Origin: Cyanobacteria bacterium auto_48_18 | GTDB taxonomy: Bacteria > Cyanobacteriota > Vampirovibrionia > Obscuribacterales > Obscuribacteraceae | Assembly (NCBI GenBank): GCA_036170915.1 | Contig: JAVHQC010000025.1 | Span: 32,001 to 96,000 of the forward strand | Direction: 5' to 3' | Length of the DNA stretch: 64,000 bases | Shown here: positions 9,077-46,635 of the stretch, one piece after another | Numbering within the stretch: the stretch's first letter is position 1 | Layout of the letters: every line of letters starts with the position of its first letter | The notes under the pieces: generated by a model | Told to the model about the DNA's origin: nothing | The model's database searches: none | What the model saw: only the letters and a program-made list of their open reading frames with translations | Program-made: the position numbers and the translations under genes

Positions 9077-11713
9077 ATGAATCTAGATAGATTTACCAAT
9101 AAAGCTCAAGAGGCTGTCACCGGATGCCGAACAGTGCTGGCCCGGTACGGCCACAGTCAAGTAACACCCGAACACTTACTGCTTTCATTGCTTGAACAAG
9201 ACGACGGCCTCGCTTCAAAAATTGTGGAGAAACTCGAAGCACAACCCGCGGAAATCATTGCTGAATTAGAGCGCTATTTGCAAAATCAGCCCAAAGCGTC
9301 ATCGGTTAATACCACCAAAGACGAAATTCAAGTATCAACCAAAGTGATGCAACTTTTGGAACAGGCCGAGAAAGAAGCGGCAAAATTAAAGGATCAGTTC
9401 ATTAGTATTGAACATTTGATGCTTGCCCTCACCGACGAAACTAAAGGTCAGGCCGGAACAATACTTAAACGCAATGGCACCACACGCGATCGCATTCTCA
9501 AAGTATTAACAGAAATTCGTGGCAAGCAAAAAGTCACCAGCCAGGACCCTGAAAGCACATACCAGGCCCTCGAACGCTATGGCAAAGATCTAACTGCTAT
9601 GGCGGCTAAAGGCAAGCTAGACCCTGTAATTGGGCGCGATGATGAAATTCGTCGAGTGATGCAAGTGCTCAGCCGCCGCACGAAAAATAATCCGGTGCTG
9701 GTGGGTGAACCAGGTGTGGGTAAAACCGCCATTGCAGAAGGCCTGGCCATTCGAATAACCAAAGGTGACGTGCCAGAAGGCTTAAAAGACAAAAAGTTAA
9801 TTGCACTGGATATGGGGTCACTAATTGCCGGGGCCAAATACCGCGGTGAATTTGAAGAACGTTTGAAGGCTGTTTTAAAAGAAGTAATTGAGTCTGAAGG
9901 CGAAATTATTCTTTTCATCGACGAATTGCACACGGTGGTCGGCGCCGGTGGCGGTGGCGAAGGGGCAATGGATGCAGGAAATTTACTGAAGCCACCGCTG
10001 GCTCGCGGCGAGCTGCATTGTATTGGTGCCACCACTTTAGACGAATACAGAAAATATGTAGAAAAAGATCCTGCTTTAGAGCGCCGCTTTCAGCAAGTAT
10101 TCGTTGATCAACCTACAGTTGAAGAAACGATTTCGATTTTGCGTGGCTTGAAAGAGCGTTACGAAGTGCACCACGGCGTGCGCATTAAAGATAGTGCTTT
10201 AATTGGTGCAGCTGTGCTTTCTGACCGCTATATAACAGATCGCAGTTTGCCGGACAAAGCCATCGACTTGATAGACGAAGCAGCTGCACGCATGCGCATC
10301 GAAATCGATTCTATGCCCACTGAACTAGACGAATTAGAACGTCGCAGCATGCAACTGGAAATTGAAAGAGAAGCGCTTAAAAAAGAAAAAGATCCAGCAT
10401 CGCTTGAGCGCCTCGAACGCATTGAAAAAGATCTGGCCAACCTGCGTGAAAAAGCAGACGGTTTGCGGGCTCAATGGCAATCTGAAAAAGAAGGCCTGAC
10501 CAAAATCGGCACCATCAAAGCCGATATAGAACATACCAGAGTGCTGATTGAACAAGCCGAACGAGCTACAGATTTGCAAAAAGCAGCCGAACTTAAATTT
10601 GGCACTCTAATTGAGCTGGAAAAAGAGCTGCGCGAACTAGAGTCAAAATTAACTCACAACACCGGCCCACGCCTTTTAAAAGAAGAAGTTGAGCCTGAAG
10701 ACATTGCTGAAATTGTAGCGAAGTGGACAGGCATTCCGGTGACCAAACTATTGCAAGGTGAAGTGGAGAAATTGCTCTCGCTAGAAAACCATTTGCACCA
10801 GCGAGTAATTGGTCAGGAAGAAGCAATCGAAGTTGTGTCGAATGCAGTAAGACGTGCGCGCACAGGCATGAAAGATCCGCACAGGCCCATTGGTAGTTTC
10901 CTATTTCTTGGCCCAACCGGCGTCGGGAAAACCGAATTAGCCAAAGCCCTGGCCGAATTTTTATTCGATGATGAAGGTGCCATTGTGCGCATCGACATGT
11001 CTGAATATCAGGAAAAACATACGGTGGCACGCTTAATCGGCGCACCTCCCGGCTACATCGGTCACGATGAGGGCGGGCAATTAACCGAGGCTGTAAGACG
11101 ACGCTCCTACTGCTGCGTATTGTTTGATGAAATTGAAAAAGCCCATGCGGATGTTTTCAATGTGCTCTTGCAGGTATTAGATGAAGGACGCCTGACCGAT
11201 TCGAAGGGCCGTACAGTCAACTTTAAAAATACCGTTTTGATCATGACTTCAAACATTGGCTCTCAGCATATACTCGATTATCAGCTTAAGGCCGCAGTTG
11301 ATGGCGATGAGCATTTCTACGATGAAATGAAAGATTCTGTGATGCAGGCTTTGCGTGGTCACTTCAGACCGGAGTTTCTCAACCGTATCGATGAAACTGT
11401 AGTTTTCCATGCACTAACGGCTGCAGAACTGGCGAAGATTGTAGATATTCAATTGCATATTCTCAACAAGCGCCTGGCGGATCGCAAGATTGTGCTCAAA
11501 GCAACTGAAGCCGCTCAAGACTGGCTGGCCACAACTGGTTATGATCCGATTTATGGAGCCAGGCCGCTGAAGCGTTTGATTCAAAAAGAAATTGAAAATC
11601 CACTTTCTCTACAAATGCTAAAAGGTGAATATGCGGATGGTGATCACATCATCATCGACTGTGCTGACGATGAACTGGTCTTTAAAAAGGAAAACAACTT
11701 AGTGACTGTATAG
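9077..11713 (+). CDS. clpB: ATP-dependent disaggregase ClpB
   Basis: Two AAA+ modules ([16 protein letters not shown]), long middle coiled coil, 878 aa, upstream SD GAGGA. Confidence 0.97.
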
Positions 11714-11900
11714 TGGCTTTTGGTGTGGCTTTACGGTGGGGCGTAGCTTGAAAAAAGCTTGAGTGTTACTACTCAAACAATCTACAGTTTGAATAGTATC
11801 ATTCAAGCTTTTCAAACAAGATACCACCAACCCAAAGTCCGAAAAAACCAAGGTTTTTCGAATCAAGATTTCCAAGTAATTGAGAATCACTTATTCAAAA
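11714..11900 (+). other. Long inverted-repeat structured non-coding segment (candidate sRNA, structured 3'UTR or MITE-like element)
   Basis: Arms 11748-11778 and 11787-11815 are near reverse complements around an 8-nt loop; further outer pairing and a second hairpin at 11840-11860. Confidence 0.5.
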
Positions 11901-11906
11901 CAGCAC

Positions 11907-11941
11907 AAGAAGCGGGTCTTAACAGATCCGCTTCTTTATTT
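11907..11941 (+). terminator. Intrinsic terminator, probably for clpB and possibly bidirectional
   Basis: AAGAAGCGGGTC-ttaaca-GATCCGCTTCTT followed by TATTT; the single mismatch is a G-U pair on the + strand. Confidence 0.7.
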
Positions 11942-11976: not shown

Positions 11977-13056
11977 TTACAGAATTATCTTTAGCTGCGG
12001 TGGTGATACGTAATTGAGTAGTTGCATATAAGTAACCGGCGGATGCTCAAAGCAAAGTTGAAAAATTGAGTACTGGCCCCATCGCACTCGATCAATCACG
12101 CCCCAGATCGCGGCCAGATAAATCTGTAAAGCCTTGCGGCTGACGCGATGAAACACCTTGCCGATAATGCCTTGAGCTGTGTTCACGGCGACGTTAATTC
12201 GTACAGCGTGAGCAGCATCGACGTCGTTTAAGGGTACCGGCGCTGTTGCAAGAGTAAGCTTCGCAAACGTGCCATCTGACAGTTGCTTTGCTTGTCCGCG
12301 CAACTCAAGCATTGTCAAAGCACCATTTACCAGGCCAATTGAAAGACTTGATTGTGATGATAGTTTCTCGACAGATATTCCTAAGTCGCAGAGGTGATCA
12401 TGAACCGTATTAATCGCTTTTTCAAAAGGATCATCTGTTTCCGTGGGCGTAGTTTCTGGCACTGCTGCCGGCTCGGTCTTGGTCGAAATCGAAGCTAAAG
12501 TTGAAGCAGAAGTTGAACAGTCACTTTCTAAGTCACAATTCAATCTTTCAATTTCCTCTTCTTCGGAAAAGGGGTGCATTCTGGCTGGGGTTTCACGACT
12601 GCGGCGAGCAATAATATCTTTGAACGGTGTTGCTGTAACGGCACCAATATTTTCGCCCTCTTGGCCCATTCGATTAGCCATAGCCATGCTAATTTTTCGT
12701 TGAATATTGGACGACGTGCCAACATGTATACCGGTAAGACGCGCGAATGCTGCTGCACTTATTAGAAGACCAGCCTCGCGAATAAGAAAGGCCGCGAGAT
12801 AAGCTTTAAATCGCTTGACTCGATTTAAAAGTGTTCCAGACGTGAACCAGTAGCATCGTGCACAGCCGACACAGACCGACATGCGATCACCCTTTTTGCG
12901 ACGAATCTCAGGCTTTTCACAGTGGCACTTTTCGAAACCAAATTCCACGCAAAATTCGTAGAAAATTTCCATTGCGTCTGAGTCTTCGGGCGCAATACTA
13001 TTTACTTTGGCCCAGATTTCCTGAATCTCCGGATCGTTCTCTAATCGTTCTAGCAT
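11977..13056 (-). CDS. IS1595-transposase-derived protein lacking the DDE core, with internal DprA-like winged helix
   Basis: CHC..CVGC..FTSGTLL Zn ribbon, ISAAAFARLTGI..GTSSNIQRKI HTH, LTMLELRG..KQLSDG winged helix, FHRVSRKALQIYL and VTYMQL C-terminus; SD GGAGGTG. Confidence 0.65.
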   Translation of the reverse strand: MLERLENDPEIQEIWAKVNSIAPEDSDAMEIFYEFCVEFGFEKCHCEKPEIRRKKGDRMSVCVGCARCYWFTSGTLLNRVKRFKAYLAAFLIREAGLLISAAAFARLTGIHVGTSSNIQRKISMAMANRMGQEGENIGAVTATPFKDIIARRSRETPARMHPFSEEEEIERLNCDLESDCSTSASTLASISTKTEPAAVPETTPTETDDPFEKAINTVHDHLCDLGISVEKLSSQSSLSIGLVNGALTMLELRGQAKQLSDGTFAKLTLATAPVPLNDVDAAHAVRINVAVNTAQGIIGKVFHRVSRKALQIYLAAIWGVIDRVRWGQYSIFQLCFEHPPVTYMQLLNYVSPPQLKIIL

Positions 13057-13141
13057 AAGTCACACCTCCGACTTATTTCTATTAACGTAATCAGGAACGA
13101 TTTAGTTCAATTTGTAGGCAACATTTTTTGAACCGGGTGCA

Positions 13142-14266
13142 TTAAAACTGTTTGAGTTTATCGTCGATTTGTTTGAGATGGGCGTTATAGACTTGATAAT
13201 CCATCTTTTCGCCTGATTTACGATTGACCACCGCATGATCATAAATAGTGCGCGCTCTTTTGTAATAGGCGAGTGCTTCCGCACGTTTGCCCTGCGACCT
13301 GTATAAATCGGCCATACCCTCTAAGGTCTCTGCAATAGCCGGGCTCGATTCGCCACTTGACTGTTGCTTTATCGCCAGCACCTGATTTAACTCTGTTTCG
13401 GCCTGGGCATATTGGCCAGTTCTGATGTGACAAATTGCCATCCGCTCTAAATTATTGGCGTAGGCCTGAGGGTTTGCGCTTTGCGAAAGAGATGGATTAT
13501 TTAAAAGCTTGGCCAACAATTCTTCTGCTTCCTTATAACGTTTGCCATCAATAAGCAAATCAACCAGATGTCGAATAGAACGGTCAGCGTCACTGTCACT
13601 TAGACTATTGGCGACGTCTCTTTGATCAATGATTTTGCGCAATACTTTTTCGGCTCGATCAGGATCACCCCAGTTATCGAAACCGTCTGCCAGGCTGATC
13701 ATATCTTTAGTGAAACGGCTGGTAGCCTCACTTGGCATTCCATGAGTGCGCGAGGCTGAATCGACGATTTGCTCGGCTTCCCAGAAATGGCCCTGGTCAA
13801 TCTGTTTTTCCGCAGCTCCTAAATATTTATTGAATATGACAGCTTGAGTGTCACCAGGGGCGATATCAATGAGTGGAATGTTAGCGGCCAGTTCTTCCAT
13901 GGTTGTAGTGCCTGACGATAGAGAAGTTATGTCACGGGCATTAACAATTACATCGCTGTAGCTAGAGGTATTGGCTCCATCGTAAAACTTTACGGACACC
14001 GTGGCAAACTGAGCTGGTGCATAATTTACCAGCACTCGAGCAGCAGCGATTGCGGCTTTACGACGGGCCGTTTGGTCCGGGGGCATATGAAATACTTCAA
14101 CCACTGCTTGCTTGTCGATTAACTTCACCCGCGGGCTGTGACGAGAAGCGAACACGCGTGAGCGGTGCAGGGCAGATTCAAGATTGCCACCTGTGCTTGC
14201 CTGGGCCGACAAACTGCTTGTTAGACAAAAAAGAAGCACAAGTGCGTTGAAAACATACTTACCCAT
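13142..14266 (-). CDS. Secreted TPR-repeat protein
   Basis: Signal peptide (SAQA-S); C-terminal kinesin-light-chain-like TPRs (IAETLEGMADLYRSQGKRAEA); overlaps larC by 8 bp. Confidence 0.75.
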   Translation of the reverse strand: MGKYVFNALVLLFCLTSSLSAQASTGGNLESALHRSRVFASRHSPRVKLIDKQAVVEVFHMPPDQTARRKAAIAAARVLVNYAPAQFATVSVKFYDGANTSSYSDVIVNARDITSLSSGTTTMEELAANIPLIDIAPGDTQAVIFNKYLGAAEKQIDQGHFWEAEQIVDSASRTHGMPSEATSRFTKDMISLADGFDNWGDPDRAEKVLRKIIDQRDVANSLSDSDADRSIRHLVDLLIDGKRYKEAEELLAKLLNNPSLSQSANPQAYANNLERMAICHIRTGQYAQAETELNQVLAIKQQSSGESSPAIAETLEGMADLYRSQGKRAEALAYYKRARTIYDHAVVNRKSGEKMDYQVYNAHLKQIDDKLKQF

Positions 14267-15737
14267 CGATCTTAGACCTTTCTATTTGGCTGGCTGCAGC
14301 ATTGAGGCTTTGCAGTAATACGTCTTTAAGAGAGATATTACTGTTGCGAGAGTAATTGACTACGTCTTCATACTCAGGATGTACGTTGATGATGCGACCG
14401 TTTAAATCGCGACCTATTTTAATACGAATACTTGGCCCCTCACCCAGGGTTACTTCCTGAAAATCGCGCTCCAGCACGATTCTTTCGCAGAAATAGCTGC
14501 GCACGCCCAGGCTTGTTGTTTCTTTTAAAATCAGCTCTTGTAATCGTCGAGAGTCTTCGGGTTTTGCCACCACAGATAGTTTGTGTCCCGGACGACCTTT
14601 CTTCATAGTCAACGGAATGATAGCCACATCAAGGGCTCCATCTGTCACCAGATTTTCTACAGCATGAGCGAGTATTTGTGGTGAACAGTCATCTAAATTA
14701 CATTCCAGTACTGCCACTACTTCTGATCGATAGGATGCCGCTTGTGCCTCAGTCTCCACTTCAACTGGCGAGCTCATATACTTATTAGTAAACTTGCTCT
14801 CGCCGATGATTAAGCGCACTACATTAGGATGACCTTCTGGATTAATAGTGCCCGCACCATATCCGATGGCATCAACATGACTGAATGCCGGATGCGGCCC
14901 CCAGCCGTGAGCGATAGTAGCAAGAATGGCGGCACCCGTGGGCGTAAGGCATTCGTATTGCACATCGAACTGGCGAATGGGTGCACCGGCTACTTTGAGC
15001 AAATTCAAGACAGCAGGGCCGGGCACAGGGAAGAGTCCGTGCATTGTTTTAACAATGCCACCACCGAGCGGAACAGGTGAAACATAAGATCTTTCAATAC
15101 CTAGCTCGGTATAACAAATGGCGAAGCCGACAATGTCAACGATGGCATCGATGGCTCCGACTTCGTGGAAGTGTATTTGATCAAGAGCGACGCCGTGCAC
15201 CTGCGATTCAGCCAGACCGAGGCGCATGAAAATATCTGAGGCCAGTTGTTTAACTGCCACCGTCAGTGGGGCCACTTCTATTAAGGCTAAAATTTCAGTA
15301 AGCGATCGCTCTACATCATGACTGTGTTCATGACTATGTTCATGACTGTGTTCATGACTATGTTCATGACTGTGTTCATGACTATGTTCATGACTGTGTT
15401 CATGACTATGCTCATGACTGTGCGCGTGTCCATGACCATGATCGTTTTCATGGGCCTGATCATGGTCGTAATGCTCGTGTCCATGGTCATGATGATCGTG
15501 GCTAGCGTGACCATCACTAGAATTAAGACTGCCATTCAATAAATGCACATCAAATTTGGTAGAAAGAATGCTGCACCGATTGACCGCGCTTTTGGCCAAT
15601 TTGTAACTTTGGTCAGGCAAATTGAGCAAAGCCAGCTGTTGCTCGAGGGTTGCCAGAGAAGCGCCGGCATCCAGGCACGAGGCCACCAGCATGTCTCCGG
15701 CTGCACCAAACGTACAATCGAAATAAGCAGTTTTCAA
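14259..15737 (-). CDS. larC: Nickel-pincer cofactor nickel insertase LarC, single frame, His-rich insert
   Basis: YFDC..GAAGDM, HFHEVGAIDAIVDI, TPTGAA, LECNLDD, MKKGRPG, ETTSLGVR, PEYED. Confidence 0.93.
   Translation of the reverse strand: MKTAYFDCTFGAAGDMLVASCLDAGASLATLEQQLALLNLPDQSYKLAKSAVNRCSILSTKFDVHLLNGSLNSSDGHASHDHHDHGHEHYDHDQAHENDHGHGHAHSHEHSHEHSHEHSHEHSHEHSHEHSHEHSHEHSHDVERSLTEILALIEVAPLTVAVKQLASDIFMRLGLAESQVHGVALDQIHFHEVGAIDAIVDIVGFAICYTELGIERSYVSPVPLGGGIVKTMHGLFPVPGPAVLNLLKVAGAPIRQFDVQYECLTPTGAAILATIAHGWGPHPAFSHVDAIGYGAGTINPEGHPNVVRLIIGESKFTNKYMSSPVEVETEAQAASYRSEVVAVLECNLDDCSPQILAHAVENLVTDGALDVAIIPLTMKKGRPGHKLSVVAKPEDSRRLQELILKETTSLGVRSYFCERIVLERDFQEVTLGEGPSIRIKIGRDLNGRIINVHPEYEDVVNYSRNSNISLKDVLLQSLNAAASQIERSKIDG
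15316..15423. repeat. Nine 12-bp tandem units (TCATGACTRTGY) encoding HSHE repeats in larC
   Basis: Read directly; G/A alternate strictly, giving a 24-bp superperiod. Confidence 0.95.
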
Positions 15738-35032: not shown

Positions 35033-36312
35033 ACTCAGTCAGCACCCGCTATGCCAAATCAATTGCTTACGCCAAACGCATCGCGGAGGTGATTCCGGGC
35101 GGTGTAGACAGTCCGTTTAGAGCTTTTCACGAAGTGGGCGGCGATATAGTCTTTTTCGATCGGGCCAAGGGCTCGAAGCTTTATGATCTCGATGGTAATT
35201 GCTACATCGACTATCTTGGCGCCTGGGGCCCGGCGATTCTTGGACATTGCCCAGACGCCGTGGTGAAAAAATGCCAGGAGACTTTGGCCAAAGGCCCGGT
35301 CTTTGGTGCCCCCCATGTTTACGAAATGGAAATGGCCGAGCTTGTTATTGCCGCTGTTCCTTCTGTAGAAAAAATTCGCTTTGTCAATTCCGGTACTGAA
35401 GCGGTGATGAGCGCGATTCGCCTGGCCAGAGGGTTTACAGGCAAAGAGATAATTATTATGTTTGAAGGCTGCTATCACGGCCACAGCGATGCCACCTTGG
35501 CCAGCAACGGTCATCAGTCTTCTAGTGGTATTCCTGATGGTGCACGTGCGGCTACAATTTTGGCGCAGTTCAACAATTTAAATTCGGTGGAAGATCTTTT
35601 GCAAAAGCATAAAGACCAGATTGCTGCAGTAATTGTTGAACCGGTGGCTGGTTCAATGGGTGTAATTGCACCACAGCCTGAGTTTTTGGCGGGCTTGCGT
35701 AATCTATGCAATCAGTATGGTGCCCTGTTTATAATGGACGAAGTGCTGACAGGATTTCGCCTGGCCTTTGGCGGCGCCCAGAATCTTTATCAGGTTGATG
35801 CAGACATCACTTGCTTCGGAAAAGCGCTCGGTGGGGGCATGGCAATCGGTGCGTACGGCGGCCGCAAACATATTATGGACAGACTGCAACCGGAAGGCGA
35901 CGTCTATCAGGCCGGTACTTTCTCAGGCAACCCGCTCACCATGGCTGGTGGCATTGCTACTCTTGAACTACTGGCTGATAGCCGCGTCTACGACACACTA
36001 GAAGCACGCACAGCCCAGCTTTTTGCCGGCCTGGCTAAAGTGATTGACTCTCATAATTATCCAGTCCAGTTGCCTCGCGTTGGCTCAATGTTTTCTCTGG
36101 TCTTTGCCCAAAAGCCTGTGCAAAATTTTCAAGACTCGCTGACGATAGACGCTCACACCTTCGCCAAATTTTTCCATTATCTCTTAGACAACGGTGTCTA
36201 TTTGCCGCCTTCAGCGGTAGACGCAGCCTGTCTTTCGTCAGAACACAGCGAAGCTGACATAGACACCACCATTGAAATTATGACGCGAGCCTTTAAGCAC
36301 TGCTTTGGCTAA
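35029..36312 (+). CDS. hemL: Glutamate-1-semialdehyde 2,1-aminomutase
   Basis: IPGGVDSP.RAF, WGPAILGH, FEGCYHGH, DEVLTGFR, GKALGGG, YQAGTFSGNP. Confidence 0.93.
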   Translation: MNSVSTRYAKSIAYAKRIAEVIPGGVDSPFRAFHEVGGDIVFFDRAKGSKLYDLDGNCYIDYLGAWGPAILGHCPDAVVKKCQETLAKGPVFGAPHVYEMEMAELVIAAVPSVEKIRFVNSGTEAVMSAIRLARGFTGKEIIIMFEGCYHGHSDATLASNGHQSSSGIPDGARAATILAQFNNLNSVEDLLQKHKDQIAAVIVEPVAGSMGVIAPQPEFLAGLRNLCNQYGALFIMDEVLTGFRLAFGGAQNLYQVDADITCFGKALGGGMAIGAYGGRKHIMDRLQPEGDVYQAGTFSGNPLTMAGGIATLELLADSRVYDTLEARTAQLFAGLAKVIDSHNYPVQLPRVGSMFSLVFAQKPVQNFQDSLTIDAHTFAKFFHYLLDNGVYLPPSAVDAACLSSEHSEADIDTTIEIMTRAFKHCFG

Positions 36313-37328
36313 CCACCGCCAATATCAAGTAATTCGGGATCTTTAGCGGCCAGCCACTTTTTGCGAATTCGCAGAGCCTCTGCGCGCAGTGGTGTAATCG
36401 CTGCACGCTCTTCCACTGTTTTTTCAGGGCACTGCCGAAGCACATCGGCAATCACCAGATTGACTCTGGCTCTAGCTAATTGCTCCTCCGGTTGCTCCGA
36501 ATGACTTAAGTTAGTCTGGGCTTTGGCAGCGGCGCATTCCGCTTCTTTAAATTCGCCGCTCATCAAATAAGCTTTGCTCAACTCTGCGAGCAAGCTGGCT
36601 TTGTAGCGATCTGGTGGTGTTTCTTCTCCACGCAAATCTAAGGCCAGGTGCAATAAAGTCAGGGCATCATCCGGTTGACCGGTGATATTAAGTGTGCGAG
36701 CTAATTCATAATAAGAGCTGGCCAGAGCGCGGTTCACGACTTCTAATTGTTGTGCAGCCGCGGCCGCATTCATCTGCAAATCTTTTTTGCGTTGCTCTAA
36801 AATTTCACAGCCTTTTTTGCCGGCCTTAAGTGCTTCTGAATATTTGCCCTGGTCTCTTAAAACCGAGCCAAGCAGCTCATAAGTAAGTCCTTCCGCTTCG
36901 ACTCTGTGATACTTTGCTTTTTGAGTGACGTTTTGCTCTGAATTAAATAAATCAATGGCCTGCCGCACTGTGGCTTCGGCTTCAGCGAATCTGGCTTGAC
37001 CACGCAAGACTTCAGCAAACAGCGCAAGATGGAAGCCGGTTTCAAGAGATCCGGGCGAAAATACTTCATGAAGGTTCAGAGAAAAATGCGCAAATTTCTC
37101 TGCGACCAGGAGCCTGCGATTAAGACCATAAATGGTGACAAAAATGGGCAATGCCGGATAAATGAAATAAGCCGAAAGCCCACCCACAATCAAGACGCCA
37201 ACAGGAGCAATCCATTTAAGTAGCGGTGTTGGGCAAAAATACCAGGCTACAACGCTGAGTAAAATCCACACCAGAGCATAGCTGCCCAGGATCACAATCG
37301 TCTCACGGGCAAGATTTTTGATTTGCAT
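36309..37328 (-). CDS. Membrane-anchored TPR protein
   Basis: Two to three N-terminal TM helices followed by TPR-like repeats. Confidence 0.7.
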   Translation of the reverse strand: MQIKNLARETIVILGSYALVWILLSVVAWYFCPTPLLKWIAPVGVLIVGGLSAYFIYPALPIFVTIYGLNRRLLVAEKFAHFSLNLHEVFSPGSLETGFHLALFAEVLRGQARFAEAEATVRQAIDLFNSEQNVTQKAKYHRVEAEGLTYELLGSVLRDQGKYSEALKAGKKGCEILEQRKKDLQMNAAAAAQQLEVVNRALASSYYELARTLNITGQPDDALTLLHLALDLRGEETPPDRYKASLLAELSKAYLMSGEFKEAECAAAKAQTNLSHSEQPEEQLARARVNLVIADVLRQCPEKTVEERAAITPLRAEALRIRKKWLAAKDPELLDIGGG

Positions 37329-37342
37329 GCGAATGTGTCGAT

Positions 37343-38077
37343 TTAGAAGGTCGAGCGCATTTTGACTAGATCTGAGAAGGTGTCCCAGATTACTGAGAAC
37401 TTTCCACCAGAGGCACCTTGGGTGGTGCGGGGCAAATGTTCAATTGGAATCTCAATTACCTTGAAGCCGGCTCTTTCGGCACGAATGCAAAGTTCAGCAT
37501 CAACAAAAGGAGATTTCGAAAGCAATTCTACTTTGTCGAGAATGGCTCTTCTAAATAGTTTGATTGAGTTGACGTCTTTATGTTTGTGGCCATAAAAAGT
37601 ACGAAGCATCAAGTTATAAACTTTAGACTGCATTTTGCGGCGAGGCGGATCGTTGCGATTAACACGAAGGCCAATGACAAAATCGTGATCTTTGAGACCC
37701 TTGGCCATTTGCAGCAGCTCTTTTGGAGCATACTGATAATCACCCGGCAGAGAGAACACCAGATTCTTAGTGCCGCAGGTATAGAGTTCACGAATGGTGA
37801 AACCGAAGCCTCTATTGACTTCATGATTTATAAGCCTGACGTGACTGTTAGCAGCGCAACGCTCTTGAATCACAGACAGAGTGCGATCTTTACTGCCGTC
37901 GTTGACCACTACGATTTCATAATCGTCGCAAATTTCTGCAAGCAATTTGTCAGAGTCATCGATCAATCTGCCAATAGTTTCTTCATCGTTATAAGCAGGA
38001 ATGATTAGAGTCACCGGGTCCAATTTGATTTTGGAGTCCGTCGAGTTAGAGCGCTGTCTGGGTTGAGTGTTATTCAT
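37343..38077 (-). CDS. GT2 glycosyltransferase (DPM1-like)
   Basis: IIPAYNDE, VVNDGSKD, NRGFG, FVDAEL, EIPIEH.PR. Confidence 0.9.
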   Translation of the reverse strand: MNNTQPRQRSNSTDSKIKLDPVTLIIPAYNDEETIGRLIDDSDKLLAEICDDYEIVVVNDGSKDRTLSVIQERCAANSHVRLINHEVNRGFGFTIRELYTCGTKNLVFSLPGDYQYAPKELLQMAKGLKDHDFVIGLRVNRNDPPRRKMQSKVYNLMLRTFYGHKHKDVNSIKLFRRAILDKVELLSKSPFVDAELCIRAERAGFKVIEIPIEHLPRTTQGASGGKFSVIWDTFSDLVKMRSTF

Positions 38078-38107
38078 GGTTAGTCCAATTGGTGGTTCTA
38101 ATGACTG

Positions 38108-39271
38108 TTAGACAGTTTGTCCTTCGGCAAAAGCCGAAGTTGAAGTTTGTACATGACTTTCGGTGACAGCGCGCTCTTGATAGAAGGCCTTAATGCCGTC
38201 AATGACTTGGTCTACTTGCTCGCTTGTCATTTCTGCGAACATCGGCAAACTCAAAATGCGATTGACGATATGTTCGGTGGTAGGCAAACTGCCTTCGCCG
38301 TAACCGAGGAATTGATATGCCTGCTGGCGGTGAGCTGGAATCGGATAGTGAATCAAGCATTGCACGCCACGCTCAAGCAGATAAGCCTGCAATTCATCGC
38401 GGTCAGGAGTTTGAATCACATATAAATGATAGACATGCTTGAAGCCTGATGCTTCAACTGGCGTCACCACCAGATCCTTCAACCCTTCGGTATAACGTGC
38501 TGCAATCTGACGGCGCTGCTCATTCCACTGATGCACATAAGGAAGTTGTGCCGAGAGAATGGCGCATTGAATTTCATCAAGGCGACTATTGATGCCTAAG
38601 GTATCGTGATAGTAGCGCTTTGACTGACCATAATTGCGCAGCATCTTTAGCTTTTTGTATTTCTCTTCTGAATTAGTGGAGACCGCTCCACCATCACCAA
38701 AAGCGCCCAGGTTCTTGCTTGGATAGAAGCTGAAAGCACCATAATCTCCAATGCTGCCGGCCACAGCACCACGATAGGTGGCACCAGTAGCTTGAGCTAC
38801 ATCTTCCATAACTTTGATTTTGTGTTTGGCCGCGATCTTCATGATCGCTTCCATTTCAGCCATGTGACCGTAAATGTGCACAGGAACAATCATCTTTGTG
38901 CGAGGTGTAATTTTCGACTCAAGTTCAGTTTCGCGCATCACATAAGTCGAAGCTTTGATGTCTACAAATACAGGGGTGGCTCCAGTCATAGATATTGCCG
39001 AAATGGTAGGAACGGCAGTGTGAGCCACAACCAGCACTTCGTCGCCCGGCCCGATATCTTCAGCAGCCAGTGCAAGATATATTGCTTCAGTTCCAGAGGC
39101 GCAACCCACTACATATTTGGCACCAACGAATTGGGCAAACTCGGCTTCGAACTTATCCAGTTCCGGCCCAAGAATATAGTAGCCGCTAGCCAAAACCCGG
39201 GCCACAGCCTCATCGATTTGGGCCTTGTAAGCCTGATAGTGCACTTGCATGTTGCCGAATGGAACGTTCAA
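38108..39271 (-). CDS. DegT/DnrJ/EryC1/StrS nucleotide-sugar aminotransferase
   Basis: SGTEAI, VHIYG, EDVAQA, FSFYPSKNLG, NSRLDEIQ. Confidence 0.93.
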   Translation of the reverse strand: MNVPFGNMQVHYQAYKAQIDEAVARVLASGYYILGPELDKFEAEFAQFVGAKYVVGCASGTEAIYLALAAEDIGPGDEVLVVAHTAVPTISAISMTGATPVFVDIKASTYVMRETELESKITPRTKMIVPVHIYGHMAEMEAIMKIAAKHKIKVMEDVAQATGATYRGAVAGSIGDYGAFSFYPSKNLGAFGDGGAVSTNSEEKYKKLKMLRNYGQSKRYYHDTLGINSRLDEIQCAILSAQLPYVHQWNEQRRQIAARYTEGLKDLVVTPVEASGFKHVYHLYVIQTPDRDELQAYLLERGVQCLIHYPIPAHRQQAYQFLGYGEGSLPTTEHIVNRILSLPMFAEMTSEQVDQVIDGIKAFYQERAVTESHVQTSTSAFAEGQTV

Positions 39272-39585
39272 CGTTATTTTGCCTCGCTAAAACCGCTGCA
39301 CCTGAATGTGGTCTGTGCAATTCTAGTAGAAAAGAGCATGATTCGAATTAACCCTGCTTTAGTTGACAACATGCCTAACTCGCAACTAGCGCTTACAACC
39401 AGTGCCCGACTGCTATCACAATTCTAAAGAGTGGCGGTCGCTGAGCCCTTAAGGCTGTAACACCGTGTTAGAATCGAGCAGAAGTGAGACATGATCAAGT
39501 ATTTAGTGAATTTCATAGAGTCATAAACTTGATTCATTGTTTCAGACAAAGGTGTACTTCGGCATTCTGAGCGGAATTTAAGAAT

Positions 39586-40638
39586 ATGAGCCAGACAGTG
39601 GAAACAGCTTTCAAAGGCAAAACGGCATTAATCACAGGCGGCATGGGCTTTATCGGGTCCAACCTGGCCATTCGTCTGGCGAACCTGGGCGCAAAAGTTA
39701 CAGTTCTGGATTCAATGATTCCAGATTATGGTGGTAACGAGTTCAATCTTGCCCCCGTGAAAGATCGAGTGCGCATCAACTATTGCGACATTCGCGACGA
39801 GTCGGCGCTCGACTATCTTGTGCGCGGCCAAGATTACGTTTTCCACCTGGCGGGTCAAGTTTGCCATTTGATGAGCCTTTCCAATCCTTTCCCAGACATA
39901 CAAATCAATATCACCGGCACAGCGGTATTGATGGAAGCGCTTCGCAAATTTAACCCGAATGCTATCTGTGTATATACAGGCACTCGGGGCCAGTATGGTT
40001 CTTCGGTATCTCTGCCTGTCAATGAAGAAGCACCAACCAATCCAAAAGGCATTTACGAGATTTCAAATCTCACTGCTGAAAAAATCATCAAGGTCTATAA
40101 CGACGTGCATGGCATTCGTTCTGTGCTTTTGCGATTGAGCAACATTTACGGGCCACGTTCGCAGATGAAGCACTCGCGCTTCGGCGTTTGCAACTGGTTT
40201 GTGCGGCTGGCCATGGACAACGACGCCATTCAAGTTTATGGCGACGGTAGCATTTTGCGCGATTTTTGTTATGTAGACGACACTGTAGAAGCGATTATCA
40301 AATCAGCAGTGACGCCTAAGGCTTATGGCGAAATTTTCAATGTTGGCTCAGACATACCAGTGAGCTTCCTTGAATTGGTCAAAACAATTGTTGATGTAGC
40401 AAAAATGGGCAGCTGGGAATACGCTGAATTTTCGGCCGAACGCAAAGCTCAAGAGCCTGGCGATTTCTACTCAGACATTACAAAAATGAGAGAGATTGTA
40501 GGTTGGAGCCCCACCACAACCCTCGAACAAGGCTTAGAGAAAACCTGCGACTACTATCGCAAGAATCGTGATTATTACTGGTCGAAAGCTCCAGTCGGCA
40601 TGCCTTCTTCTAAAGAAGCCACTGCGACTAAAGTATGA
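39586..40638 (+). CDS. NAD-dependent nucleotide-sugar epimerase/dehydratase (extended SDR)
   Basis: [20 protein letters not shown] (YxxxK variant), NIYGPR, RDFCYV. Confidence 0.9.
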
Positions 40639-41027
40639 ACGAAGGCGCCCGCACCAATGTAGCCAGTGGTACCCCGTGGGAGCCAATCGTAGGATATTCT
40701 CGCGCGGTTAAAGTGGGCAACTTCATTGCCGTTTCAGGTACTACAGCCACCGGTGAAGATGGAAAGATTGTGGGCCCAGGTGACGTTTATGCCCAGACCA
40801 TCCAGGCAATCAAGAATATTGAGAGTGCGCTAAAACAAGCCAAGGCTGAGCTGAAGCATGTGGTGCGCACTCGCATTTTCGTCACAGATATCAAAAACTG
40901 GGAACTGGTGGGTAAAGCCCATGGTGAATTCTTCGCTGACATTCGCCCCGCCACAAGCATGGTTGAAGTTTCAAGGCTAATATCATCTGACATGCTGGTG
41001 GAAATCGAAGCCGACGCTGTCATTTAG
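40635..41027 (+). CDS. Rid (YjgF/YER057c/UK114) family protein
   Basis: [36 protein letters not shown]. Confidence 0.92.
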
Positions 41028-41035
41028 TTGCGATT

Positions 41036-41467
41036 TTAGTGGCGGTAAGCATCCACCCAATTTAATTGCAAATCATGAGCCTCGACGTTAAGAGGTAAGA
41101 GCTCAATGGTAAAAGTGCGGCGCTTCTCGCGCGACCCCGCTTCAAGCAAGTCAACTTTCGCGCCACCGCTGGCGGTGAGGGCCTCAAGTGAGCTGAAGCC
41201 AAAAAACCGTACCTGGGCCGTATCTGGCCATTCTCCCGACTTAAGTTTAATTGCTGCTCCGCCAATGCCGTTTTTCTTACGTACCTCTATATAGAGTTTA
41301 TTTTTTCTGGCAAAGGCGCTGACGTCATCTCCTCCGCGCAGGCCCGTACCGGTGACGGCAAATGTGGCAGTTGCGCCAGATGCCGACTGGCTGGGGAAAA
41401 GCAGCAGCAAGAACAAGCAAATCAAGCCCAGAAAATTGATGTGATGGTGACCAACTGGCAATTTCAA
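41036..41467 (-). CDS. Hypothetical secreted protein
   Basis: Signal-peptide-like N-terminus, beta-rich body ending WVDAYR. Confidence 0.55.
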   Translation of the reverse strand: MKLPVGHHHINFLGLICLFLLLLFPSQSASGATATFAVTGTGLRGGDDVSAFARKNKLYIEVRKKNGIGGAAIKLKSGEWPDTAQVRFFGFSSLEALTASGGAKVDLLEAGSREKRRTFTIELLPLNVEAHDLQLNWVDAYRH

Positions 41468-41557
41468 TTTGAATACCTTTTATCAGAGGCTTGCGAGCAC
41501 TACTAGGAACCTGAGCGATTTTTTGAGATACTGAGTTTTTTGAATTGAAGAGATCAG

Positions 41558-41818
41558 ATGAACAATAAGTTATTCGTGGGCAACCTGTCCTTCAAAATCG
41601 AAGAGGCCGAGCTGCAAGAAGTTTTTTCTCAGACCGGTTCAGTATTGTCTGTGTCCATTCCTACAGACAAATATACCGGCAAAAAACGCGGATTCGGTTT
41701 TGTCGAAATGGGCTCTGAAGAAGATGCCGAACAAGCGATTAAAGCCCTGAACGGCCGAGCTCTGGCCGGGCGCGAAATGTCGGTCAATCTGGCACGGCCA
41801 AAAACTCGTCAACCTTAA
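41558..41818 (+). CDS. RRM (RNP-1) RNA-binding protein
   Basis: RNP2 LFVGNL and RNP1 RGFGFVEM. Confidence 0.95.
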   Translation: MNNKLFVGNLSFKIEEAELQEVFSQTGSVLSVSIPTDKYTGKKRGFGFVEMGSEEDAEQAIKALNGRALAGREMSVNLARPKTRQP

Positions 41819-41887
41819 TAATGAGTCTTTAATAACGATAAGCTATGGTCCATGAAGTGTGGGCAGCTCTTCTTCAAGAGTAGCTCT

Positions 41888-41896
41888 TGCTATAAT
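41888..41896 (+). promoter_or_regulatory. Extended -10 promoter of the SGNH-MBOAT pair
   Basis: Exact TGnTATAAT (TGCTATAAT) about 30 bp upstream of ATG 41924. Confidence 0.55.
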
Positions 41897-41923
41897 TTGA
41901 GCTTGTCAAGCAAGTGGTATTCG

Positions 41924-43201
41924 ATGCTTCGCACTGAGCCTAAAAAAGTAGCTCCAGCCCCGACTGACGATTACGAGCAACTACCGCCAACTTTCACTAC
42001 TCGCATGTTGGCCATGCTCAAAATCACAGCCAGCAGCAAAGCGGCACAGGCAGCCCTACTGGTGGTTCTGGCCAACTGGGCTCTAGTAGCAACCAATCCA
42101 TTTAGAAATGTTGATCCTGATAGTCTTCCCACCCTGAAATCATGGGTATGGTGGACCACCCAAGATTATCGCCAGTTGAGCGAGCGACCAGCTGTGGTGC
42201 TGCTCGGTTCATCACTGCTAATGAATTCAGTCTGGATGCAAGAAGCCGAGCATTTACAAGAAAACGTAGACATCGTTGTAAATCGGCGCACTCGCTACCT
42301 TGAGACCATGCTGAGCAAACATTTGCCTGACTATAAAGGCATTTGCTTCAACTTTGGTTTACCTGGCAGCATGGTTTCCGACGATTACATGATCGCGCGT
42401 ACACTTTTTGAGCAAAAGCACACACCAAAAATCGCCGTGTTCTGCTTAGGACCAAGAGACTTGATGGATACCAGCTTTAGCTGTGCTGGTGCCACCAGCG
42501 CATTTAGATACCTCGAGCGTTTTACTGACACCAAAGATTTGCTCGACATTGCTTACACAAGCACATGGCCAAAAATCAATTTTATGTTGCGCGAGTTTGT
42601 TTATTTCGTTGATAAAAAACACCACTCACAATCTGTTCTCGGTGAGCAAGCAAAAACGGCTCTCAATCCGGTGTACAAAGGCTTTACTGGGCCAAGCAAA
42701 TTCAATGTCAAAACCGATTTTGATAAGCAGTTCGCTTTCTATCGATCTGAAGTAGAAAAAGGCGTCTTTATAGCCAAACCAAATGTGCAAACCGATTCTT
42801 TCTACGACAATGGTAAAGACTGGAAAAAGCGCTTCAAAAATTCAAATGACGAAATGTTCGATAATCAAAAAATTTGGTTGAACAAGGCCCTGAGCGAAGC
42901 TAAAGCCAAAGGCATAGTGCCGGTTCTGGTCAACATGCCTGTATCTGAGCTGGGCATCAAATATATTCCGCCACAAGTCTATAAAAGACACGTTGATACG
43001 CTGGTGGAAATGGCGGCAAAATACGATTGTCCTTATGTCGACACCATGAAAGAAGGTCATTTCGACATGAAAGACTTTTCTGATTATGGTCACATGGATG
43101 CCAGTGGTGGCAGAAAAATTGTTGATATTGTCGCCAATTATTTAGCCACCGATAGCCGCACCCGCAGCCGTTTAGCAGAAGAAACGGGGGGAGGCCGCTA
43201 A
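41924..43201 (+). CDS. Membrane-anchored SGNH/DltD/DUF1574-like partner of the MBOAT
   Basis: N-terminal TM, LLGSS block, FNFGLPG, C-terminal FSDYGH (DxxH); overlaps the MBOAT start. Confidence 0.7.
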   Translation: MLRTEPKKVAPAPTDDYEQLPPTFTTRMLAMLKITASSKAAQAALLVVLANWALVATNPFRNVDPDSLPTLKSWVWWTTQDYRQLSERPAVVLLGSSLLMNSVWMQEAEHLQENVDIVVNRRTRYLETMLSKHLPDYKGICFNFGLPGSMVSDDYMIARTLFEQKHTPKIAVFCLGPRDLMDTSFSCAGATSAFRYLERFTDTKDLLDIAYTSTWPKINFMLREFVYFVDKKHHSQSVLGEQAKTALNPVYKGFTGPSKFNVKTDFDKQFAFYRSEVEKGVFIAKPNVQTDSFYDNGKDWKKRFKNSNDEMFDNQKIWLNKALSEAKAKGIVPVLVNMPVSELGIKYIPPQVYKRHVDTLVEMAAKYDCPYVDTMKEGHFDMKDFSDYGHMDASGGRKIVDIVANYLATDSRTRSRLAEETGGGR

Positions 43202-44670
43202 TGCTATTTAACAGCGCCGCCTATCTGGTTTTTCTGCCCATAGTGGTGGCAATTTACTGGTCGATACCATTTCGCTATCGCACAGCGTTTTTACTTTTAG
43301 CCAGCTATTTTTTCTACATGACCTGGAAGCCGATTTATATCGTGCTGATTGTGGTGCTCACTGCCTTCAATTACTTTGCCGGTATTGTTATTGAGAAAGA
43401 AAAGGCAAGACGCAAGCTCTACCTCATTGGCGCGCTGGTGGCCAATATTGCTACTCTGGCTTACTTTAAATATGCATATTTCGCCATTGATTCGGCGAAT
43501 AGCTTACTCGCCGTGACCGGTAGCAAAAATTCTTATTCTTATCCTTTGCACGAAATTATCTTGCCTCTGGGCATTTCCTTTTTTGTTTTTGAATTTATCC
43601 ATTATCTGGTGGACGTTTATAAAGGCAGTGCTGCGGTTAAGGCTCCTCTGGAATTTGCTCTGTTTCCAAGCTTTTTCCCCACACAAATAGCTGGCCCCAT
43701 CAAGCGTTTCCAGGACTTTGTGCCGCAATTACATCTGCCCGCCAAAATCAATTTGAAAGACATTGATCAAGGTGTGGAACTGATTTTGTGGGGTTTGTTT
43801 AAGAAAGTAATCGTGGCCGATAGCCTGGCTGTTGTGATTGATAAATGTATGCCGCATCCTGAAATGCTCAGCACCATTGACTGCTGGATGCTGCTCTGGG
43901 CTTTTGCCATTCAGGTTTATTTTGATTTTTCAGGCTATACCGATATCGCCAGGGGATCAGCCGCCCTGCTTGGTTTCAAGGTACCACTAAATTTCGATCT
44001 TCCATTTTTGGCCGGCTCGATTACCGAATACTGGCGACGCTGGCACATCTCGCTTTCGTTGTGGTTGCGCGACTATTTGTTTTTCCCTCTGGGGGGAAGC
44101 AAGCACGGAACCCTTGCCACCATCCGCAATGTCATGATTACATTCACCATAGCTGGCCTCTGGCACGGTGCTGGTCTTAATTACATAATTTTCGGTGCTA
44201 TGCATGGCCTCTGGCTCAGCTGCAACCGTGTCTGGAGGCTAATTGTAGACAAGAGCCCTGTGCTTACCAAACTGACTGCAACCGTGCCTTTCCATGTCTT
44301 TGGTGTGCTGCTTACTTTCAATGCTCTGGCTGTGACACTAGTGACATTCCGCCTGCCTAATCTGGAATTATCGGGACGCTATTTTCAGAAGCTGCTCATA
44401 ATGACACCAGAAGCCGCTTTGAACCCTTTCACTTTGACCATTCCTTCTATTGAAGGGGCTGCAAACTTTGCTCTTTTCCCAGTATTTTTGTTAGCCATAG
44501 TGATTGGCCACTTAGTTTCCAATCAACTCAGAGGCAAAACCGTTCCTGGAATTCTGCCTTTACCAAAACCTGTGCAGATACTAAAACCAGCATATCTGGC
44601 CGCTCTGGCCATTCTGCTCTTGCTCTTTGCCCCAGATGGTACACCAAGCTTCGTTTATTTTCAGTTCTAA
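43201..44670 (+). CDS. MBOAT O-acyltransferase (AlgI/DltB/PatA type)
   Basis: MLFNS, LPLGISFF, AGPI, YFDFSGY, WRRWHISLS, GLWHGA, FVYFQF. Confidence 0.93.
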   Translation: MLFNSAAYLVFLPIVVAIYWSIPFRYRTAFLLLASYFFYMTWKPIYIVLIVVLTAFNYFAGIVIEKEKARRKLYLIGALVANIATLAYFKYAYFAIDSANSLLAVTGSKNSYSYPLHEIILPLGISFFVFEFIHYLVDVYKGSAAVKAPLEFALFPSFFPTQIAGPIKRFQDFVPQLHLPAKINLKDIDQGVELILWGLFKKVIVADSLAVVIDKCMPHPEMLSTIDCWMLLWAFAIQVYFDFSGYTDIARGSAALLGFKVPLNFDLPFLAGSITEYWRRWHISLSLWLRDYLFFPLGGSKHGTLATIRNVMITFTIAGLWHGAGLNYIIFGAMHGLWLSCNRVWRLIVDKSPVLTKLTATVPFHVFGVLLTFNALAVTLVTFRLPNLELSGRYFQKLLIMTPEAALNPFTLTIPSIEGAANFALFPVFLLAIVIGHLVSNQLRGKTVPGILPLPKPVQILKPAYLAALAILLLLFAPDGTPSFVYFQF

Positions 44671-44702
44671 GCAGTTAAAATAGAACAGTTAAATTTGAGC
44701 GC

Positions 44703-45338
44703 TTATCTAATAGAAGCGAGAGTCATTTTTAAGCATGACTCGATATGAGCCTGGCACATTTCGTTCGACAATAAATCAGTGCCTTCGGGCCAGAGACTCT
44801 TGAGGTTGTCTCGTGCGATGACGTAAAAGACGCACATGCCCACAATATTGGCTGTAACGTGCACCACATCACCCTGAGCAAACTCACCGCTTTGCATTCC
44901 GCGTCTCAGACTTTCAATCAATGGGCCATAAAGGCTGCCCACCGAAGTTTCCATATAATATCTGCCTTCGTTTTGTAAGGCCTCAAGCAGCATCAAGCTA
45001 CCAACGTTAGGATTCTGAATTATTGAAGCAAGAAGGTTACGCACCACAGCTGATACTGCGTCAGTTGGAGACAGATCATCTACATGCAGCGAATCTAGAT
45101 CAGCTCTGCGTTTGGCAATCAACCTTTCCATAACCGCTTTATAGAGGTTTTCTTTGTTCTCAAAATAATAGTGAATCATCGCCTTAGTCACACCCGTGCG
45201 GGCGGCGATAGATTCGGTACGGGCGCCCCAGAGGCCAACTTTTGCAAACTCTTGCTCCGCCGCATCTAATATGCTGTTGCGAGTCGCTTCGGCATCACGT
45301 GTTGGCGCTTTGACACCAGGCTTGGCAATTTTTTCCAT
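44703..45338 (-). CDS. TetR/AcrR regulator (RutR-like)
   Basis: ILDAAEQEFA..G..GARTESIA..GVTKAMIHYYFENKENLY. Confidence 0.9.
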   Translation of the reverse strand: MEKIAKPGVKAPTRDAEATRNSILDAAEQEFAKVGLWGARTESIAARTGVTKAMIHYYFENKENLYKAVMERLIAKRRADLDSLHVDDLSPTDAVSAVVRNLLASIIQNPNVGSLMLLEALQNEGRYYMETSVGSLYGPLIESLRRGMQSGEFAQGDVVHVTANIVGMCVFYVIARDNLKSLWPEGTDLLSNEMCQAHIESCLKMTLASIR

Positions 45339-45538
45339 TTAATCAGTCCACTTGTTGTGCTTACAATTGTACTCTGGACACCGGGCTCCAATTAATATTT
45401 GAACGCAGATTGTCCATCAAGGGCTGCCTGGATTCATAATTCCCTTCTTTGACGGATAAAACACGCTTTCACATCAAGCCAGTTATACTTCACTTGAAAA
45501 AATATCCGAAAAAAGTTTGTAATCGCCCTGCTAGCAAG

Positions 45539-45564
45539 AAGGACCGGTCTATTAACCGGTCCTT
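45539..45564. promoter_or_regulatory. 10-6-10 inverted repeat between the two TetR genes (operator and/or terminator)
   Basis: AAGGACCGGT-ctatta-ACCGGTCCTT; the minus strand contains TAATAGACCGGTC, matching the site at 46251. Confidence 0.5.
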
Positions 45565-45602
45565 GTATATTTTTTCTTGTTGCGCCGATGGAGGGTTAGA
45601 AT

Positions 45603-46214
45603 CTACTTTCTTAGCGCAGGCTGAGCCGAGAGAAACGTGAATGTCAAATCAACAAATGTGGTCAGAGGCTTAACTGTGCGCATAGATTTGGCGCGCAAGA
45701 TTGCACCTTCCCAACCACTGAGGAAAAGATCGGCAAGCTCAAGCGGTTCAAAGTCGTTGCGAATCTCTCCTTTTCTTTGACCTTCCTCCATGCAAGCAGC
45801 GAAAACATCTGTCCAACTTTGAAATACTTTCTCGAGTTCTTCGCGCAGCACTTCGCTTTGCCCTGCCATCTCCTGGCTGAGGTTGCCTATAAGACAGCCC
45901 CGAGTGCATTTACGCTCTTCGATACGTTGCCTGTGGGTGGCGCAGTACCGTTTCAAGCGATCAATCGGCGAAAGACTTCTATCTCGCAAACTAGAGAGTA
46001 TTTGTTCAGTGTAGCCTTGATCGAAATGCCGAATAATCTGCAAAGCGAAATCTTCTTTGCTCTCAAAATAATGGTAGAAAGAGCCTTTTGGTACTCCTAC
46101 CGACTCGAGCACTTCTTGCAAACCGCAATTGCTATAGCCTTTTTCAAGCATTAACCTTGTGCCGGCTTCCAGCAGCTCAAGCTTCGTTCCTTCTCTCTGT
46201 AATACTTTTGCCAT
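45603..46214 (-). CDS. TetR regulator, NemR/AcuR-like
   Basis: GVPKGSFYHYFESKEDF, GCLIGNLSQE, WEGAILRAK. Confidence 0.9.
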   Translation of the reverse strand: MAKVLQREGTKLELLEAGTRLMLEKGYSNCGLQEVLESVGVPKGSFYHYFESKEDFALQIIRHFDQGYTEQILSSLRDRSLSPIDRLKRYCATHRQRIEERKCTRGCLIGNLSQEMAGQSEVLREELEKVFQSWTDVFAACMEEGQRKGEIRNDFEPLELADLFLSGWEGAILRAKSMRTVKPLTTFVDLTFTFLSAQPALRK

Positions 46215-46252
46215 TTCAACTGTCCATCTTTTAAAACCAACATACTTACATA

Positions 46253-46269
46253 ATAGACCAGTCGTCTAT
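46253..46269. promoter_or_regulatory. NemR/AcuR-like operator
   Basis: ATAGAC-N5-GTCTAT palindrome about 40 bp upstream of the regulator, similar to the TAGACC..GGTCTA NemR box. Confidence 0.65.
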
Positions 46270-46374
46270 AAACGTCAAGCATTTATAATCAAGACTCGCA
46301 CATTGCACACACATTTAATTGCGCACGGCAATTAATGACCAGCTAAGTGACCAGCTCATTGCTACAGCGGCAGA

Positions 46375-46503
46375 TTATTTTCTGCGGCCGTCTTCTACTT
46401 TTATGGGAATAGTTGCGGGTTGTGCACTCGGACCGGCGAGCCAGTTGCGTACGATATCCCACATCTCTTGCCAGAATGACCGCTGCAAGATTGACGGTTT
46501 CAT
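46375..46503 (-). CDS. Small 42-aa protein missing from the ORF track
   Basis: MKPSILQRSFWQEMWDIVRNWLAGPSAQPATIPIKVEDGRRK*; GGAGG SD 7 nt before ATG. Confidence 0.65.
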   Translation of the reverse strand: MKPSILQRSFWQEMWDIVRNWLAGPSAQPATIPIKVEDGRRK

Positions 46504-46635
46504 CAACGACCCTCCGAACCCTCTTTATTCACCATAGCAGATTAGCTGAAAAATGGAGAGTTGCCACCGCGGTTTTTCCCACGCGCAAGGTATTTTTTTG
46601 CAATCAGTCCTAAAATTACAGGGAACAGGAAGTCT

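Follow-up and report, generated by a model that had tools for sequence, protein, structure and literature searches.

How does a protein that begins and ends like an IS1595 transposase, and carries a DprA-type winged helix in the place of the catalytic core, serve the cell that keeps it? This question is raised by a gene at positions 11977..13056 (minus strand) of the window, by which we mean the whole stretch of 64,000 nucleotides (nt) analysed here (Cyanobacteria bacterium auto_48_18, contig JAVHQC010000025.1, positions 32,001 to 96,000). We propose, with a probability of roughly 0.45, that its product is a site-bound adaptor of the helicase ComM that shields the resident allele and its own neighbourhood in transformation, a 'recombination gatekeeper'. 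A sequence-only reading had described an uninterrupted open reading frame (ORF) of 359 amino acids (aa) without giving its strand; the ORF is real and lies on the minus strand, like all features of the gene given below, as the plus-strand frame across 11977-13056 is stop-ridden. The strong Shine-Dalgarno sequence of that reading, GGAGGTG, was found at 13063..13069, and the motifs it quoted are in place: CHC at residues 44-46, CVGC at 62-65, FTSGTLL at 71-77, RRSRETP at 151-157, ISVEKLS..ELRG at 227-254, IIGKVFHRVSRKALQIYL from 297 and PPVTYMQLL from 339.

The termini derive from IS1595 transposases, as had been claimed. When the profile of 133 family members was compared by hhalign with nine IS1595 transposases, which come from a set of 20 loci in the same bacterial family, the probability was 99.83 and the E-value 6.8e-30, residues ~13-130 and ~285-348 being well aligned and the middle unaligned. 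At E<=0.1, the NCBIfam IS1595 model (NF033547) matches 106 of the 133 members, and with 16.9 bits the window protein stays below the cut-off of 75. At the N-terminus are a Zn ribbon (C44/C46/C62/C65; 12862..12927), whose cysteines are 99-100% conserved across 151 relatives, and the transposase helix-turn-helix (HTH; residues 99-122, 12691..12762), a candidate palindrome-reading head. Profile comparison also identified the IS1595 C-terminal helices (G/RxSRKxLQxYL...PIsY; residues ~285-352, 12001..12204). The catalytic core between them is gone, in agreement with the sequence-only reading. The alignment of the 151 relatives has no columns for an acidic DDE/DDH triad, and E-x-D-E of IS1595 is replaced by the family motif R-R-S-x-E-T-P-x3-H-P-x2-E (residues 151-165, 12562..12606), of which R-S-x-x-T-P..H-P..E is near-invariant (R152, S153, T156, H161, P162 and E165 at 93-99%). 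AlphaFold models of the window protein and of a natural member without winged helix (predicted local distance difference test, pLDDT, 91.9 each) form one compact helical scaffold with short strands only, and neither contains the five-stranded sheet of an RNase-H fold.

The winged helix (residues ~209-268, 12253..12432) was recognised by Pfam, structure search, complex model and alignment to the host DprA. Pfam DprA_WH (PF17782) matches residues 226-262 of the window protein above its cut-off (24.7 vs 22.9 bits) and is found in 15/15 aligned relatives, so that a DprA-like winged helix indeed stands where the core belongs, and it is the sole part of the protein that matches solved structures. 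The winged helix of the host DprA is 59% identical to that of a consensus-like family member over 56 aa and 36% identical to that of the window protein over 42 aa, and the DprA core (DNA_processg_A/SLOG, PF02481) is absent from family members and present only in the true DprA of the genome. At the level of sequence, these comparisons show an IS1595 transposase that no longer has its RNase-H core and has acquired a copy of the winged helix of the host DprA. Exact terminal inverted repeats of >=10 bp were found neither in nine copies of another genome (G100) nor bracketing the window ORF; the control search detected such repeats at three of nine true IS1595 loci. Near-identical recent copies were not found either, the closest paralogs being 88% identical in nucleotide sequence with ragged homology ends. 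PF12762 (DDE_Tnp_IS1595) has no match in the source genome (G000), and no HUH (Y1) transposase domain is among the Pfam or NCBIfam matches of members, their homology being to the DDE family.

The family comprises 626 clusters at E<=1e-30 (50%-identity representatives) and is, as had been suggested, lineage-specific: within the bacterial family of the window, 89 of 104 genomes have it (1-19 matches each), and weak matches were found in just 26 of 153 sampled genomes from other families of the class (best E 1.4e-12). Among 78 GTDB loci counted by hand from their titles, 53 belong to Obscuribacter/Obscuribacterales/Melainabacteria, 11 to generic cyanobacteria and 14 to others; no family member was confirmed in IMG/VR. 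In the source genome, nine full-length copies, the window gene among them, are 28-42% identical and free of stops; one shortened copy and a true DprA are also encoded. Synteny is kept between sister species, and the ratio of nonsynonymous to synonymous substitution rates (dN/dS) is 0.09-0.19 in seven syntenic pairs (0.15 for the window gene), not near 1 as under neutral decay, which indicates purifying selection. Expansions are genus-specific, with ten G100 copies in one clade and five G067 copies in another (FastTree support 1.0); the G100 copies are dispersed, 67-88% identical and ragged at their ends. At the site after clpB, three congeners carry a different subclade without the winged helix (approximately unbiased, AU, test, p 1.9e-7). 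The next gene lies tail to tail with the family copy at 52 of the 78 loci and runs in the same direction at 15, the other 11 being uncalled. The family, which is dispensable, has been expanding lineage by lineage. Its shortened member in the source genome (C23:36738-37505) has 255 aa, keeps the winged helix and is adjoined by a palindrome of the type ACCT-N4-AGGT, which has ~27 dispersed copies in three spacer variants. Divergent members of 390-510 aa with long insertions occur in G154, a genome with 18 matches and 78 palindromes.

The added part had been taken for a new nucleic-acid-binding module. The gain of a module stands; nucleic-acid binding probably gives way to a different role. In complex models the winged helix docked on ComM with an interaction prediction score from aligned errors (ipSAE) of 0.78 in three runs, and the best control reached 0.00; at least 88% of the contacts agreed and the pLDDT of the partner was 86. 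The mark set for ipSAE is reached by 116 of 157 solved pairs and by 2 of 215 mismatched pairs. Helix 240-252 is the part modelled against the ComM C-terminal domain, and its residues E251 and L252 are conserved among relatives. Because of this modelled fit, the winged helix is probably a dock for the helicase and not a DNA-binding module.

Expression is predicted to be tied to the same process. An extracytoplasmic function (ECF)-type promoter motif, TTGAAC-N17-CGTT, lies at 13084..13110 before the window gene and is common to its paralogs and to comM, comEC, comF, yraN, radA, recA, radC, recJ, priA and an ECF sigma gene. TGAAC-N17-CGTT stands 25-32 nt before the start in nine of ten source-genome copies, the tenth having a spacer 1 nt shorter, and at this spacing a stricter pattern has 44 sites, whereas each of 12 other spacings has 1-5. 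A Pfam scan of 22 proteins (20 downstream of motif sites, DprA, and another ORF at the recJ locus) named ComEC, ComM, a ComF-type phosphoribosyltransferase, YraN, RadA, RecJ, DnaE, PriA, XseA, RadC, ECF sigma, DUF6088 and envelope proteins. The motif precedes comM in 28 of 30 relatives, lies ~365 nt before the start of recA, and exceeds its reversed control in this bacterial family only. A two-box motif at fixed spacing precedes co-functional genes and an ECF sigma/anti-sigma pair, and since the family copies carry it as comM does, their expression would coincide with DNA uptake and recombination. The ECF sigma gene (C23:45711-46355; C23:45711-47176 together with the zf-HC2 anti-sigma gene that follows it) has the motif before its own start and likely encodes the regulator of a regulon for transformation and recombination that is restricted to this bacterial family.

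Other genes share the motif. Five dispersed DUF6088/AbiEi-like genes (C15:59451, C22:30499, C22:109261, C35:228255 and C25:106052) are possibly an adaptor family of their own, unrelated to the first; 102 nt upstream of the C35 copy lies a perfect palindrome that resembles another dispersed palindrome family (~20 copies). At C10:180000-230800 of the source genome, four motif copies precede toxin-antitoxin-like genes (ParE, HigB, a double-HTH protein). Two genomes of genus g5, G045 and G175, have neither family nor palindrome and show the motif at background only, and ComM was not found in G175 with the query used; a loss of the whole regulon is possible there.

The second feature that accompanies the family is a palindrome. 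Alignment of the G100 flanks revealed a conserved ACCGATATCGGT ~80 nt before the -35 box, whose core lies within 400 nt upstream at 49 of 78 GTDB loci, downstream at 2/78, and upstream of comM in 2/25. When the search was made blind to the core, 95 of 131 non-redundant copies had a loop-less palindrome upstream, compared with 11 of 131 in-gene controls, and the core was CGATATCG in 66 and CGTTAACG in 11 of these 95. The main type, AACCG-N4-CGGTT, stands beside the promoter, typically 30-90 nt upstream of the -35 box and is sometimes doubled at a distance of 35 nt; perfect arms of 13-18 bp are frequent among the sites, and their outer parts vary from site to site. In one clade, sister to that of the window copy, the palindromes are clearer and lie downstream of the gene. 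At least seven copies of the main 12-mer occur in 63 of 89 family-bearing genomes and at most six in 15/15 genomes without the family (median 16 vs 1; range 0-124 per genome), though kin genomes are not independent. In the source genome, 49 of 57 sites fall between genes; convergent gaps hold 21 of those 49 vs 218 of 1813 in the background. When eight in-gene sites of the complete genome G080 were aligned with site-less homologs, four alignments were gap-free, two sites lay near small gaps and two in indel-rich stretches, so these palindromes apparently arose by substitution. Upstream of the copy at the clpB site, G172:C3 (~2300-2830) and G096:C12 have tandem repeats of palindrome-like units.

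Sites gather around their presumed genes. For three source-genome paralogs, an own variant adjoins the gene and is clustered within 50 kb of it, where 13 of 28 (expected 0.5), 6 of 9 and 3 of 4 of the other sites lie; an unbiased 16-mer scan with doublets merged picked the same three of ten paralogs at Bonferroni p<0.05. In G080, 13 of 39 sites fall within 50 kb of one family gene (expected 0.8), and around another gene, in a survey of 18 regions of 20 kb, six sites of another type lie within 15 kb. A palindrome cluster also surrounds a family gene in G100, where 8 of 18 sites adjoin family genes and eight more share contig C24 with one; in G072, five of ten C8-type sites are on the contig of the C8 ortholog. 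Clear clusters include those of the source-genome paralog at C8:54880-56004 and of the G080 gene at 2378740. Clusters were also seen in source-genome control windows without a family gene (C33 ~184000-190000, C36 ~36000-47000 and C30 ~123000), which may mark other site-binding proteins or chance.

What would most simply account for a transposase DNA-binding scaffold, a modelled ComM dock, a comM-type promoter and local cognate sites is a site-bound adaptor that biases transformation; the binding, the expression and the direction of the effect are what we infer. In this course of events, an IS1595 transposase has exchanged its RNase-H core for the host DprA winged helix, and its copies carry the promoter motif of comM, comEC, comF, yraN, radA and recA, so that the protein would be present during DNA uptake and recombination. 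For the most part close to the gene that encodes it, a dimer of the Zn-ribbon/HTH/C-terminal scaffold would bind AACCG-N4-CGGTT or the variant specific to its paralog; cis action is common among transposases. The winged helix would fill the DprA dock of ComM, the helicase that together with YraN extends and fixes the displacement loops (D-loops) of transformation, and the chromosome-bound protein would capture or stall ComM at its sites. A site-bearing resident allele would then resist overwriting and a site-less recipient could acquire the site, an asymmetry that would lead to local build-up of sites even in coding DNA. This build-up would shield the gene and its neighbourhood from curing by transformation, and new copies would arise rarely, by ectopic integration, and persist thereafter. 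In the window copy, the promoter motif, the modelled dock and purifying selection are retained, with two degenerate sites only. We favour protection of the resident allele because it explains the locality, the persistence and the winged-helix-less derivatives.

Several observations weigh against this proposal. Copies without the winged helix exist and arose at least twice, their origin in one clade being rejected (p 6e-53), and the passing complex score may reflect likeness to DprA instead of retained binding. The motif is absent before dprA, pilB, the pilin genes, ssb and lexA, so 'transformation-recombination and stress regulon' is a safer name than 'whole competence regulon', and the regulon may, from its gene content, serve stress and recombination rather than pure competence. 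The pairing of protein and palindrome is read from proximity and co-occurrence among kin genomes that are not independent. In the 16-mer scan, p<0.05 was likewise reached in 4 of 100 control windows, and seven of ten source-genome paralogs, that of the window included, had no significant cluster; a 12-mer scan recovered one of ten, and two palindrome types that adjoin paralogs are dispersed genome-wide. Outer arms are more alike between nearby than between distant sites, which makes copying likely as well as substitution. Finally, the data do not distinguish blocking from promoting.

In the promoting case, the protein would bind the palindrome on incoming DNA, as a hairpin of single-stranded DNA (ssDNA), or at the D-loop, and load ComM-YraN independently of DprA, so that site-bearing kin DNA integrates preferentially, like an uptake-sequence system that works at recombination and not at the membrane. 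Promoter, dock and palindrome data are the same for this reading, the perfect arms with site-specific outer parts suit hairpins, the DprA winged helix loads ComM and does not block it, and in-gene sites at permissive positions resemble uptake sequences (PMC2817400). We nevertheless find it rather doubtful: a trans-acting loader should spread its sites genome-wide and most strong cases are local, and at most 124 sites per genome is far below the numbers of DNA uptake sequences (DUS) and uptake signal sequences (USS). We regard it as unlikely that the proteins are domesticated transcription regulators, with a palindrome before their own promoter for autoregulation, scattered operators and a winged helix that is vestigial or DNA-binding. 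The distance of single and doublet palindromes from the -35 box, the intact winged-helix-less copies and the many regulator winged helices among the structure matches would suit such a role; the preference of sites for convergent gaps and coding DNA, clustering that follows distance and not function, the downstream position in one clade and the passing ComM model speak against it. Of the 'host regulator or undescribed lineage-specific system' suggested by the sequence-only reading, the lineage-specific part is thus borne out by the distribution, and the regulator survives as this rival.

A mobile system related to REP-associated tyrosine transposases (RAYT) and their repetitive extragenic palindromes (REP), or otherwise non-autonomous, seems quite unlikely to us. 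Its protein would mark palindromes and its own gene, with ComM-YraN or an intact IS1595 transposase as borrowed nuclease. Genus-specific expansions with dispersed, diverged copies, the two subclades at the site after clpB and sites that are mostly extragenic and locally similar are what it predicts, but terminal inverted repeats are lacking, homology ends are ragged, the IS1595 ends of this lineage are unlike the palindrome, PF12762 has no match in the source genome, orthologs keep their position between species and in-gene sites are gap-free. Chromosome organisers with parS/matS-like sites that define local domains, for which the link to competence would be incidental, could account for 14-bp palindromes clustered over ~100 kb; we hold them to be highly improbable, given the several unrelated clusters of a genome, with a paralog at the centre of each, the absence of the family from 15 of 104 genomes, the promoter motif shared with comM and the DprA dock.

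The family belongs neither to IS1595 elements nor to DprA, DUS/USS or RAYT, though it would partly work like each of them. With IS1595 transposases (PF12760, PF12762, NF033547) it has in common the Zn ribbon, TAGTxF, the HTH and the C-terminal GxSxKxLQxYL...LLxAC..PxSY; the closest types, with E-x-D-E / TD / H, come from the same bacterial family and are presumably of the ISSod11-like subgroup. Unlike them, it lacks RNase-H core, triad and terminal inverted repeats, sits at fixed orthologous positions, and has its own ECF-type promoter and an inserted winged helix. The likeness to DprA consists of the PF17782 match, the LxxLEL helix and the modelled contact with the ComM C-terminal domain, whereas the winged helix is here in a transposase scaffold of many copies without the ssDNA-binding and RecA-loading core. 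RAYT genes are domesticated transposase genes flanked by cognate extragenic palindromes, with several systems per genome. Family genes are likewise flanked by palindromes that recur in extragenic DNA (weakly so for the window copy), but unlike RAYT with their active HUH nuclease the proteins are DDE-derived without a recognisable active site, and some of their palindromes lie in genes. As with Neisseria DUS and Pasteurellaceae USS, a short motif with dialects is over-represented in a competent lineage, and uptake sequences lie in terminator-like hairpins and at permissive coding positions (PMC2817400, PMC2397512), where the palindromes are also found (eight alignments, four gap-free). Unlike DUS and USS, they number tens and not thousands, are palindromic, cluster round the gene of a cognate cytoplasmic protein and are predicted to act at ComM and not at uptake. 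A conflict over ComM-dependent curing would be shared with the mobile-element antagonists of transformation, namely comM disruption, RocRp, Rok and ComI; in the sections of a review that bear on them, these switch transformation off globally and include no site-specific ComM decoy (PMC12378983). No description of the DDE-less family or its palindromes was found in the partial literature covered, and database labels of members read hypothetical or 'DprA winged helix domain'. Real and conserved, the family is probably a system of a new kind.

Around the window copy, the gene is convergent with clpB (9077-11713), and a tetratricopeptide repeat gene lies upstream of it. Between the two convergent genes are a terminator-like hairpin (11907..11936, z -9.18) and a 26-nt inverted repeat (11753..11812, z -6.55), each arm of which resembles a degenerate family palindrome (TTGAR-N8-YTCAA) and of which no other copies were found in the source genome. 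These two degenerate sites are the only ones of the window copy, which has no upstream palindrome and no cluster. At 14259-15737, the window also encodes a LarC-like nickel insertion protein (PF01969) whose His-rich repeat, (HEHS)n, is long.

In its wider form, to which we give about even odds, the proposal describes an Obscuribacterales family of transposase-derived, sequence-specific ComM adaptors in which the transposase nuclease was swapped for a dock on the host transformation helicase-nuclease, and every paralog recognises a palindrome of its own and determines the local rules of transformation, gene and sites driving their own persistence and spread. By analogy, such a family might be a bacterial counterpart of a PRDM9-like hotspot or coldspot specifier. 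If true, the recombination step of transformation, thought to depend on homology alone, would be under sequence-specific control, and the long-standing question of molecular drive versus benefit in uptake sequences would have a natural test, since the paralog-site pairs are replicates, each with its own gradient of distance. A route of transposase domestication in prokaryotes and a retargetable ComM adaptor would then emerge too, as would an ECF-sigma transformation regulon in a mostly uncultured group that is sister to cyanobacteria.
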